Assembly (NCBI GenBank): GCA_013792055.1
Contig: VMSQ01000189.1
Location: forward strand, 1 to 39,471
Direction: 5' to 3'
From: Desulfobacteraceae bacterium
GTDB lineage: Bacteria > Desulfobacterota > Desulfobacteria > Desulfobacterales > ETH-SRB1
DNA: 39,471 nucleotides
The first letter of the stretch is position 1; every line of letters starts with the position of its first letter. Below, in pieces: positions 9,621 through 39,471 of this stretch. Position numbers and translations under genes: made by a program. Under the pieces are notes generated by a model. The model was not told the DNA's origin. It saw nothing but the letters and a program-made list of their open reading frames with translations, and ran no database searches.

Positions 9621-9638
9621 AAATCGCTCAATTTAGGT
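9621..9638. repeat. Solo terminal inverted repeat of the 36529-36689 MITE
   Basis: AAATCGCTCAATTTAGGT is the exact reverse complement of 36529-36546. Confidence 0.8.
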
Positions 9639-9680
9639 TTAATTCCCGAGCATGTTTTGGCCAGAGGTAAAATTGTAATA

Positions 9681-11699: not shown

Positions 11700-12170
11700 T
11701 GTCAATAGCATTTCAAGATGTCCGGTTTTCATAGCAAATGAATTATCCGGTTTGTGATTGCTTAACGGAAGGCCAGGGTGTTTTGCCATGCCCTTCCTTG
11801 TCCTGTCCGTATGGTATTTTACAAGGAGATACCTCGCGAGAGGATTGAAGGACTGAGTTCTTATTTAGACCTATCAGCTTACCTTCAGCGTTGTACCTGC
11901 CAAGTGCCCGTTTTTTTCCATATAATAGAATAAGTACTATCTAAATGCTCATATACATCAACTTTGCACCTGGCAAAGGAAATACGATAAGGAGATTGCT
12001 CAATCTGGAGCACCAGTCCATTTACTCTTACTGTATTATCAGCATATACAGAGCGCTCTTTATGAATAATAGAAAAATAAGATCCAGATCCGCATCTCCA
12101 AAGCCGACAAAAGCACTACCGCTTTCGGCGGCTTCTACCGAAAAACGACTGTTCATTGCCGCTCTGTAAT
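11700..12170 (-). mobile_element. IS1202/ISNCY-type insertion sequence remnant (3' part of a frameshifted transposase plus right end)
   Basis: Minus strand in three frames: MNSRFSVEAAESGSAFVGFGDADLDLIF / SIIHKERSVYADNTVRVNGLVLQIEQSPYRISFARCKVDVYEHLDSTYSIIWKK / RALGRYNAEGKL; end TGTCAATAGC at 11700 with two subterminal ATAGCA..TCCGGTTT repeats (11705-11728, 11731-11753). Left limit approximate. Confidence 0.8.
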
Positions 12171-36398: not shown

Positions 36399-36528
36399 GC
36401 GATGATTCTCCTGTTATGATCCAATTTTAAATGCAGCAAAATTAAATTTTTAAGTATTTTCGCGAACCATGTCAATATTTTATTATGCTTCGCTCTACTT
36501 AAACTTGACACCAACCCATCAGTATTAT

Positions 36529-36689
36529 ACCTAAATTGAGCGATTTTTTACTCGACCTGCACCAATCTTTTGCGCATCAAGGACTTACGAAAAGTCTCGA
36601 CATATCCATTGGTATGCCTACGCTTTTCGCAAACCTTGCTGCATCAATATCTTGGCACATTTCTTCGCAAAAAATCGCTCAACTTAGGT
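36529..36689. mobile_element. 161 bp MITE-like element with 21 bp terminal inverted repeats
   Basis: ACCTAAATTGAGCGATTTTTT / AAAAAATCGCTCAACTTAGGT (1 mismatch), TAT on both flanks, nested internal palindromes (CAAGG..CGAAAAG / CTTTTCG..CCTTG). Confidence 0.85.
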
Positions 36690-37270: not shown

Positions 37271-37365
37271 CTTCCCCAGCCCCTGAATTATTTATGATAT
37301 TATTGAGATAAGGGATATCGAATTACCCCTTATATACAACACGTTACAGGTTAGGAGAAATAACC

Positions 37366-38133
37366 ATGTACGAACGAGATATAGTACGTCTTAGAGAATT
37401 GCTCCTCAAACAGCGCAATGAGATCTTTGAAAGGCTTCGGCGGCTTGAATCTGATTGGAAGGTGCTGGAAGAACGCGATATTGAACTGGAAGAAGAATCT
37501 CAAAAGGCTGATATAACCAGTCTTTACGACCAGTTGGATGAACGTGAAAAGATACAAATCGAAGAAATCGATCTATCACTGTGTAGAATTGCCGCTGGTA
37601 GCTACGGGGTGTGTGAAAGCTGTCAGAAATTGATTTCTTTGAAACGGCTGGATGTGTTACCTTCAACTCGCCTATGTCGCAAGTGTGCACACAGGTATGA
37701 GGAAGAACAAAAGAGGTTGCCTCGGGCTGAAGAGGTAATTGTCTGTGAGGAACTACCCAGCGAGTATAAGGGCCTGTCCAGCGAACAACTGCGTCTGTTG
37801 ATTTTTGAACATCTACGCAATGACGGTCGGGTCGATGTTGAAGAACTCAAGATCTTCTGTAAAAATAAAATAATTTATCTTGAGGGCATTGTCCCGAGCG
37901 AGAAAGAGCACCAAATTCTACTAAGGATTCTAAGAGATATAATGGGCTTTACGTCCATTGTTGATCATCTTCAAACCACTGAACTGATATGGGAGAGGGA
38001 GGATCGCTCCCCTGGCAGAGCCGATTATACCCCCAGCGTTGATGTTGATGAAATCACAGACGATGTGTTTGAGTCACAGGAAAAGGAAATCCCTTATATG
38101 TTTCCCGATCAACCGCCGCCAGAAGAAGAATAA
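37366..38133 (+). CDS. TraR/DksA C4 zinc-finger protein fused to a BON-like domain
   Basis: Coiled coil, YGVCESC...RL..LP....CRKC; then LRNDGRVD...IIYLEGIVPS...IVDHL; AGGAG RBS. Confidence 0.82.
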   Translation: MYERDIVRLRELLLKQRNEIFERLRRLESDWKVLEERDIELEEESQKADITSLYDQLDEREKIQIEEIDLSLCRIAAGSYGVCESCQKLISLKRLDVLPSTRLCRKCAHRYEEEQKRLPRAEEVIVCEELPSEYKGLSSEQLRLLIFEHLRNDGRVDVEELKIFCKNKIIYLEGIVPSEKEHQILLRILRDIMGFTSIVDHLQTTELIWEREDRSPGRADYTPSVDVDEITDDVFESQEKEIPYMFPDQPPPEEE

Positions 38134-38176
38134 AGTAGCAACTTGCCGTTTCTATAGGAAATAAGGAGAGAATGAG

Positions 38177-38707
38177 ATGAAACTTCCATTGCAAATTACC
38201 GCTCGAAACTTTGAACTTACCGAGACAATCGAAGACTTAATTTACGAGAAAGCAGAAAAACTGGATCTTTGTTATGATCAAATTATGAGATGCAGTGTAC
38301 TGGTTGAAGCCCCTCATCGCCATCATCGCAAAGGAATTTTATACGATGTGCGGATAGATATTACGATACCGGGCAGAGAATTAGTTGTTACAAGAGAGGC
38401 ACATGAAGATCTTTATGTCGCTATAGGAAATGCCTTCCGTGTAGCCTGTCGTCAGCTTGAAAATTACACTGAGCGGCTGCGCGGGGATGTGAAACACCGC
38501 GAAGAAAAACCTCGTGCTTTTGTAAGCTCTCTGTTCCCGGAAAAGGGCTATGGATTTCTGACCACACCTGATGGCCGGGAGATATATTTCCATCGAAACA
38601 GCGTAATAGGGGATAAGTTTAAAAAGCTAAATATAGGAACCAGAGTATATTTTGTTGAAGAATTAGGAGAAAAAGGGCCTCAGGCCAGTACTGTAAAGCT
38701 ATCATAG
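38177..38707 (+). CDS. HPF/RaiA ribosome-associated protein with C-terminal cold-shock domain
   Basis: LQITARN..LT, EDLYVAI..AF (S30AE fold) plus GYGFL / IYFHRNS / KGPQAS (CSD). Confidence 0.9.
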   Translation: MKLPLQITARNFELTETIEDLIYEKAEKLDLCYDQIMRCSVLVEAPHRHHRKGILYDVRIDITIPGRELVVTREAHEDLYVAIGNAFRVACRQLENYTERLRGDVKHREEKPRAFVSSLFPEKGYGFLTTPDGREIYFHRNSVIGDKFKKLNIGTRVYFVEELGEKGPQASTVKLS

Positions 38708-38765
38708 GTTAGCGGATTAAAAATAAGGAGATACTCCACGAGAGGATTGAAAAGCTAAGTTCTTA

Positions 38766-39471
38766 GCTCCCGCATGGGGAGCGACTGAAAACTTTTTTGA
38801 AGATATGGGAGAAAGACCAGTTTCAATCCACGCTCCCGCATGGGGAGCGACAACAGTTTGTCTTAACTCCATACCACATTTACAAGGTTTCAATCCACGC
38901 TCCCGCATGGGGAGCGACATTTCCTGAGCTATCTCTCTTTTTTCTGCTTCTGTGTTTCAATCCACGCTCCCGCATGGGGAGCGACCAATATGCCTTGCTT
39001 TTTCATGCTCCGAATATATGTTTCAATCCACGCTCCCGCATGGGGAGCGACTCACCACTTAAAAGTGGTGATTATTTTTTGGGAGTTTCAATCCACGCTC
39101 CCGCATGGGGAGCGACTCACAGTTGCCCGTAACGCTATCTGGAGCAAAATGTTTCAATCCACGCTCCCGCATGGGGAGCGACTGCTAAAGACTACCTGGG
39201 GGTTGCACCAGGGCCTGTTTCAATCCACGCTCCCGCATGGGGAGCGACTACACGCAATACGCCCTATAGCCGCAAGAGATATGTTTCAATCCACGCTCCC
39301 GCATGGGGAGCGACGACAAACGATATGCCATCCCGCTTACCATTACCGAGTTTCAATCCACGCTCCCGCATGGGGAGCGACTTCATCTTTTAAATCTTCT
39401 TGATCTGTATCACCTGTTTCAATCCACGCTCCCGCATGGGGAGCGACTACACGCAATACGCCCTATAGCCG
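38766..39471 (-). CRISPR. CRISPR array with type I-C-like 32 bp repeat, running off the window end
   Basis: Ten identical GTTTCAATCCACGCTCCCGCATGGGGAGCGAC copies (starts 38820, 38887, 38954, 39020, 39085, 39151, 39217, 39283, 39350, 39416) plus a 20 bp partial at 38766; spacers 33-35 bp. Minus strand inferred from the ATTGAAAC 3' end and the degenerate trailer repeat. Confidence 0.98.

Follow-up and report, generated by a model that had tools for sequence, protein, structure and literature searches.

A probable scar of an IS1202-family element at the eroded trailer end of a type I-C CRISPR array

Results

Organization of the array end

The window (the whole stretch of DNA analysed, 39,471 nt of a Desulfobacteraceae assembly) ends within a type I-C CRISPR array, which is separated by a half repeat and a 41-bp segment from a host gene with HPF/S30AE and cold-shock domains (HPF-CSD; Table 1). 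The remaining parts of the array lie on other contigs of the genome, with 13 further repeats, the leader and cas2-cas1-cas4-cas7-cas8c-cas5 on C213 and cas3 on C28. The type I-C assignment agrees with the scores of cas3, cas5d, cas8c, cas7, cas4, cas1 and cas2, all above the NCBIfam cut-offs, and with the form of the 32-nt repeat, which folds with a 7-bp stem and an 11-nt overhang. As the array sense is the minus strand and the leader and cas genes are on C213, the side at 38725-38785 is the trailer end.

Table 1. Features of the array end and of the related insertion-sequence remnant, in positions of the window
Feature	Position	Strand	Remarks
IS1202-family remnant	11700..12156	minus	last 457 bp with right end, frameshifted
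Host gene, HPF/S30AE and cold-shock domain	38177..38707	plus	Pfam PF02482, PF00313
Host intergenic DNA	38708..38724	plus	sequence recurs behind the orthologous gene of G001, and on source contig C64
Scrap of IS1202-family element, 41 bp (43 with microhomology)	38725..38765	minus	nt 1271-1311 of 1434
9-nt handle match, antisense to pre-crRNA	38744..38752	plus	corresponds to tail codons F/L-Q-S
Perfect 7-bp inverted repeat across scrap/repeat junction	38753..38768		background 0.7% near a random point
Terminal half repeat	38766..38785	minus	nt 1-20 of 32
Last true spacer, 34 nt	38786..38819	minus	matched in contigs of run X13 and in phage records
Type I-C CRISPR array	38820..39471	minus	10 full repeats here, array runs past contig end

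All internal repeats within the window are intact. The terminal half repeat retains a 6-bp stem (pair probability about 0.9) and has lost G21 and the 11-nt handle. Spacer lengths, given as 33-35 nt in the initial annotation, came out close to that, at 33-36 nt in 22 of 22 type I-C spacers. The plus-strand translation of the last spacer, ENFFEDMGERP, recurs in phage genes annotated as HNH endonuclease or as hypothetical. One spacer is present twice, at 39248-39281 and at 39448-39471, where the second copy ends at the contig end; this is either a duplication or an assembly effect.

Several observations concern CRISPR loci elsewhere. The source genome carries a second array (C34:1889-3895) of 28 repeats of 37 nt, which adjoins a second cas3 and has a 41-nt direct duplication in its trailer. 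At L075:1320-1372 (G005:C43) a 20-nt half repeat stands in tandem before the leader-proximal I-C repeat, broken at nt 20 like the trailer studied here; the type I-C repeat may tend to break at this position. At L076:1600-1740 (G006:C3) about 10 nt separate an I-C leader with a single I-C repeat from a second repeat that we take to be of type I-E, forming a chimeric relic of two array types. Finally, the I-C operon at L125:3087-4109 holds a 341-aa frame between cas7 and cas4, which has no NCBIfam match at 1e-10 and in which we presume, by eye, a Fic-like motif.

Copy number and junction support of the 41-mer

Three sequence claims had been made for the 41-mer, and each was reproduced: it matches 11823-11863 at 34/41 positions with all seven differences being transitions, it directly adjoins the half repeat, and it contains GGATTGAAA, antisense to the array. 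In an ungapped scan of the 3.17-Mb assembly, the best sites gave 41, 34 and 33 matches (two in the window, the third, 33/41, on contig C149) and the next best at most 26; with a background that reaches only 26, the 34/41 match is not due to chance. The all-transition pattern is unremarkable, as copies of the insertion sequence (IS) differ by 21:5 and 29:12 transitions to transversions, for which seven of seven is expected with a probability of about 0.09-0.22.

The junction is spanned, from 38300 to 38847-38849 and without a difference, by contigs from 3/3 DNA runs of three studies, one of which may be the source sample. The junction thus has independent contig support, against the caveat of the initial annotation that it might lack read support, and an assembly artefact was rejected. 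RNA run X18 contributes one contig of 197 nt (depth 2.1), which has its end at 38728, and none of its contigs covers the junction.

Also rejected was a common dispersed repeat unlinked to IS ends or arrays, the other caveat of the initial annotation: the genome has three copies, the 41-mer pattern occurs in 2/401 genomes of the order (a sample that does not include G011) and in no viral contig. Wider collections gave two metagenome and three genome-collection matches, three of them being again the G020 IS or the G011 solo contigs and two chance-like. The junction has no plasmid match, and its phage matches are restricted to the spacer region among the matches listed (10 of 20). A repeat of another CRISPR type was rejected as well, the repeat of the C34 array being a different 37-nt sequence and Rfam giving no match over the 41-mer; the 25 extracted C34 spacers share only two 11-12-nt matches with the IS.

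The parent element

The copy at 11823-11863 lies within an IS remnant that is 93.9% identical to a full copy on C149, against which the match of the 41-mer grows to 43 nt. The C149 element is 1434 bp long, has TGT...ACA ends and encodes a 441-aa transposase with HTH matches, which scores 336.8 bits with NF033594, the ISNCY model (cut-off 250), and 95.3 with the IS481 model, below its cut-off of 224. The two full copies, of 1434 and 1425 bp, both have TGT/ACA ends; in the imperfect terminal repeats the outer 26 nt agree at only 11/26 positions ungapped, the inner sites at 24/26. Transposase size, HTH and ISNCY-model score, together with element length, ends and a second internal site, agree with membership in the IS1202 family, which is characterized by a large DDE transposase of about 440-460 aa with HTH domains at its N-terminus and by a length of 1.3-1.75 kb; members of its ISAba32 subgroup insert 5-6 bp from an XerCD site. 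No target duplication is visible in the 30-nt flanks of either full copy, both on short contigs. In the accessible parts of the literature, the family, formerly ISNCY, is described with partial copies and with target duplications of 5-6, 15-17 or 27-28 bp (PMC10132070; bioRxiv 10.1101/2022.12.17.520857), and members without target duplication are reported (bioRxiv 10.1101/2022.12.17.520857).

The 41-mer lies 123 bp inside the right end of the IS, within the transposase frame. The match to an IS pointed out initially therefore stands, but the segment is the coding C-terminal tail of the transposase rather than a non-coding 3' region. On the minus strand the array-end copy reads KNLAFQSSRGVSPY (...QSSRGVSPY), the relative P0001 KNSALQSSRGVSPY and the resident copies KNSVLQSSREVSP (REVSP). 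Since the array-end tail is like that of P0001 and unlike those of the resident copies, the scrap comes from a sister IS variant and not from the copy at 11823, and a part of the seven differences is thus IS variation. Contig C319 of the source genome carries a lone IS end of 45-47 bp. Of 16 loci re-aligned to the IS, 15 gave matches of 25-96 bp, which beyond G010 and G011 may be either scraps or ends of diverged relatives. Relatives of P0003 were absent from viral contigs, and plasmid matches were all less than 60% identical.

The host side of the junction

The stop codon of the HPF-CSD gene, whose orthologues in G001, G003 and G004 are about 90% identical, lies 17 nt ahead of the scrap. Homology to host DNA stops at 38723-38725, exactly where the 41-mer begins, and the ATA common to host and IS amounts to a 3-nt microhomology; the join of IS and repeat has none. 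In G001 a small inserted element comes after the HPF-CSD gene; beyond it the intergenic sequence is shared as far as ATA, past which the sequence continues as host DNA. G003 and G004 diverge just after the stop codon. In the stretches compared beyond the gene in G001 (400 nt), G003 and G004, neither the 41-mer nor an array was found.

The DksA-BON and HPF-CSD genes form a pair (window 37280-38724; L127, C64:64105-64183; L002-L004) whose neighbours vary among close relatives, and the site that this pair occupies in G004 is empty on source contig C64, where the same 16-17-nt downstream sequence is kept. At 36524-36689 the window holds a miniature element of about 165 bp with inverted ends, of which near-full copies lie on 16 other contigs and a lone end at 9621-9643.

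The perfect inverted repeat across the scrap/repeat junction may be the footprint of a fold-back. For RNA the prediction is that it does not form (pair probability 0.0), the half repeat keeping its own stem. An intrinsic terminator at the junction was rejected, with no sites called in 38500-38900 and a hairpin probability of 0.0.

The host DNA at 38712-38723 matches the lost 12-nt 3' part of the repeat at 9/12 positions, in the orientation opposite to the array. This handle mimic ends at most 1 nt from the host breakpoint, a coincidence of 0.14-0.29% by chance in a post hoc statistic. Together with the motif in the IS it makes two anti-handles within 58 nt, with duplex energies of -13.0 and -11.4 kcal/mol at backgrounds of 0.13% and 0.5% (also post hoc). 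For a 151-nt piece, the best fold includes a long-range pairing between the host mimic and the last full handle, but for a 218-nt piece the probability of this pairing drops to 0.00-0.07. Both the host mimic and the IS motif predate the junction, so neither evolved for this array; the pair may reflect chance, an aid to stem-loop-stimulated deletion or a mark of Cas1-Cas2 mis-integration. An inversion of handle and spacer was rejected, as the handle-like 12-mer is host DNA also present in G001 and C64.

The same insertion sequence at a site without CRISPR

A natural control is provided by two relatives. G011 carries, just upstream of a yefM-type antitoxin gene, an isolated 44-49-bp stretch of this IS tail that overlaps the 41-mer, and at the orthologous yefM-CHASE2 site of G010, which is not a CRISPR site, a 41-bp IS right end occupies the same position in the same orientation. 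The simplest reading of this alignment is that one insertion decayed to different scraps in the two lineages. A search of G011 (81% complete) with the array gave no match. At these and other loci (L107 and L021, G010:C31 and G011:C334; L108-L113), the antitoxin gene and its promoter form a unit with a sharp common boundary next to varied DNA; the boundary is common to seven other family genomes, and G011 has no downstream toxin gene.

Among seven related I-C arrays with multiple repeats, no two trailers end alike. That of G003 ends in a degenerate repeat without the handle, three others adjoin other genes, and those of G021, G013 and G018 adjoin apparent mobile-element remnants, as judged by eye; in G021 and G013 we take these, by their motifs, to be transposase remnants. 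Pfam gave no match for two G021 trailer fragments.

A GC-rich cassette behind transposase genes

A two-part GC-rich cassette of about 130-150 bp, consisting of a hairpin, a variable stem and a conserved second motif, was observed at L059:1258-1400, L078:1001-1135, L082:1501-1640 and L083-L105. It lies downstream of IS21, IS3, IS110, Mu-C2-type and IS1202 transposase genes and near toxin-antitoxin genes. Its second half occurs in 15/151 genomes of the class with no control matches and, under a strict pattern, is accompanied by the first half in 13/25 matches. The 14 upstream frames that were scanned comprise four IstB, two IS3-type integrase cores, two Mu-C2-type, one IS110, three HepT/HTH/HipA and two without a match; cassette copies in viral contigs sit after an IS3-type gene. 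Rfam gave no match for the cassette in L059, and a text search of the literature with six cassette motifs found nothing related.

The tails of the transposases form a graded series, KNSVLQSSREVSP to GGPAPQSPRGLSL to GGQPPDPRSLSL, and the DNA of one such relative has a GC-rich hairpin at this place. From this protein-tail series and one DNA alignment, the 41-mer is likely an AT-decayed descendant of the first half of the cassette; against this descent, an nhmmer profile built from 20 GC-rich copies failed to detect it. Could the 41-mer then be a self-mobile mini-element, a decayed form of a shared IS-end cassette that inserts alone at array ends and toxin-antitoxin promoters? The cassette does stand beside IS21, IS3, IS110, Mu-C2-type and IS1202 transposases and near HepT, HTH and HipA genes, its second-half motif is found in 15/151 genomes of the class, and the two solo copies cover the same segment. 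However, these solos differ in their ends and bear the AT-decayed sequence peculiar to this lineage of the IS, the hairpin is lost, G010 has an IS end at the very site of the G011 solo, and the 41-mer goes undetected by the cassette profile, so that we consider independent mobility the least probable of all the readings discussed here.

Discussion

What can be made of a 41-bp piece of a transposase gene joined to half a CRISPR repeat? We consider it probable that the 41-mer is a non-functional scar of an IS1202-family transposase tail, left when an IS copy between the host gene and the old array end decayed by deletions. This reading is backed by the identity of the IS and the position of the piece within it, the sister-variant origin, the exact host boundary, the half repeat and the parallel scar in G010 and G011; it is favoured because the latter two keep scraps of the same IS at a site without CRISPR. 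The 41-mer is therefore likely to be common genomic debris rather than an RNA with a regulatory role. Among the three options put forward in the initial annotation, the IS-mediated truncation of the array is supported, but neither the old spacer against the IS nor the repeat-like or anti-repeat RNA module is.

In the proposed sequence of events, an IS copy would have inserted between the HPF-CSD gene and what was then the terminus of the type I-C array. One deletion would then have dropped the right end of the IS with about 120 bp of the tail, fusing host to IS at ATA, and a second would have dropped the left 1.27 kb or so of the IS along with the 3' 12 nt of the repeat and any older spacers. 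Alternatively, one template switch in which the IS served as a patch would yield the same product. Among the strains compared, an intermediate with a longer IS at the HPF-CSD site was not found, and a target duplication is not readable at the array-end scrap. The scar reading leaves the host handle mimic at the breakpoint and the two anti-handles unaccounted for.

The position of the piece invites explanations by spacer acquisition, for which the type I-C PAM, TTC, is of relevance. In one of them, the 41-mer would be an old spacer against the IS, in the array's own orientation, silenced as self-targeting by the loss of the upstream handle. It does follow directly on a repeat, is near spacer size and matches a resident mobile element, and the handle loss would indeed stop a self-targeting crRNA. 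However, at 41-43 nt it exceeds the 33-36 nt of all other spacers, TTC is absent from the upstream 45 nt of 3/3 IS copies, it has a half repeat on one side and host DNA on the other with no relic of a downstream repeat, and none of the 22 type I-C spacers matches the IS or another site in the source genome. A spacer of this kind is thus very unlikely, though it comes first among the alternatives.

In the other explanation, which we rank next and regard as similarly improbable, Cas1-Cas2 would have joined an untrimmed IS prespacer to the host handle mimic and to the base of the repeat stem, bridging host and array after a rearrangement. The plus-strand order of a 9/12 handle-like 12-mer, 41-43 nt of foreign DNA and the GCTCCC of the palindromic stem fits such a product, as do the closeness of the mimic's end to the breakpoint (at most 1 nt), the T-rich IS sequence on the 5' side of the piece, which in that orientation is TTT or TTA and thus near TTC, and the complete cas1-cas2-cas4 set. 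Against it, the piece is again longer than every one of the 22 spacers, the mimic covers the handle and no stem, the join on the repeat side is displaced by about 3 nt from where a flipped repeat would place it, and no repeat is duplicated; moreover, such a mimic occurs in 0/7 related trailers (best duplex -5.6 to -8.5), and in G011 a piece of similar size from this IS segment occurs without CRISPR. Were mis-integration nevertheless true, the spacer acquisition machinery would be a cause of genome rearrangement that leaves spacer-sized patches at array ends; the junction would gain in importance only if such an event is what the handle mimic at the breakpoint reflects.

If the scar reading holds, any effect on crRNA processing would be a by-product. 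Poor cutting by Cas5d of the half repeat is predicted, and the last crRNA would likely have a 6-bp 3' hairpin and a ragged 3' end. An extraneous crRNA with a proper handle is predicted not to arise from the half repeat.

As the scar of an IS in an eroded trailer, the finding would be a tidy case of known biology, in which trailers erode via mobile-element insertion and deletion. The G010/G011 pair shows one IS decaying to scraps of 40-50 bp. Of wider interest than the junction itself is the GC-rich cassette, which stands beside at least four IS families and, at L059, has no Rfam match. In searches of titles and abstract openings, no literature on IS1202 with CRISPR described such a junction, and nothing was found on truncated CRISPR trailers with an IS.

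With the IS1202 family the parent element shares its length of about 1.4 kb, the 441-aa transposase, the TGT...ACA ends and a second internal binding site at each end, as far as the family is described in the accessible parts of PMC10132070 and bioRxiv 10.1101/2022.12.17.520857. It differs in that its tail carries what is likely a decayed GC-rich cassette, a feature that term searches did not bring up in those parts of either source; the array-end piece has neither an end nor a function.

A further comparison is with the solitary repeat units Racr and RacrIC1, which, in the portions of the description at hand, are likewise short mobile-element stretches resembling part of the host repeat and were sought in intergenic DNA (PMC10651486). 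By analogy, an RNA module borne by the IS, repeat-like or anti-repeat, could bind or inhibit the I-C Cascade, or an anti-handle could be kept at the trailer for processing control. An 8- or 9-nt handle match is found in 0.66% or 0.15% of 100,000 random 41-nt windows. On the plus strand of the IS copy, a 4-bp stem with a GCGA loop immediately precedes the motif, and the duplex of the minus strand and the repeat, at about -23.5 kcal/mol, ranks among the top 2.4-2.8% of the background. However, the L/F-Q-S codons needed for the motif are present in only 2/120 transposase relatives, and the motif in that orientation is in 0/20 GC-rich cassette copies (1/20 on the other strand). The fold z-scores of the 41-mers (+0.62, -1.06, +0.02, -0.72) are not significant, the segment has neither the 7-bp stem of type I-C nor an Rfam match, and handle and IS anti-handle pair in cis with a probability of 0.00-0.02. 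Its rarity, in 2/401 genomes and no viral contig, and the same piece stranded in G011, where no such array was found, also argue against such an RNA function, which we hold to be extremely unlikely. In contrast to the Racr units of PMC10651486, as seen in those portions, the likeness here extends over 8-9 nt without a repeat stem, lies within a coding tail, is not conserved and comes with no promoter or acr context shown. The case also cautions that brief resemblances to a repeat handle within an IS tail can look like anti-CRISPR RNAs.

Changes in terminal repeats that block extraneous crRNAs are described for type V-A (PMC6610086) and type II-C (PMC12080349) in the accessible parts of these studies, and the handle loss seen here would likewise block a downstream crRNA; those systems are, however, of types V-A and II, not I-C, and at this trailer there is no evidence of selection. 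Closest in form are the terminal repeats that are known, from the accessible parts of three further sources, to be mutated or 3'-truncated (PMC8047081, PMC12839519, PMC4869251). The leader-distal repeat of our array resembles them in being without its 3' part, and differs from the degenerate ones in that it ends not in point mutations but in a clean cut to foreign DNA of nameable source.
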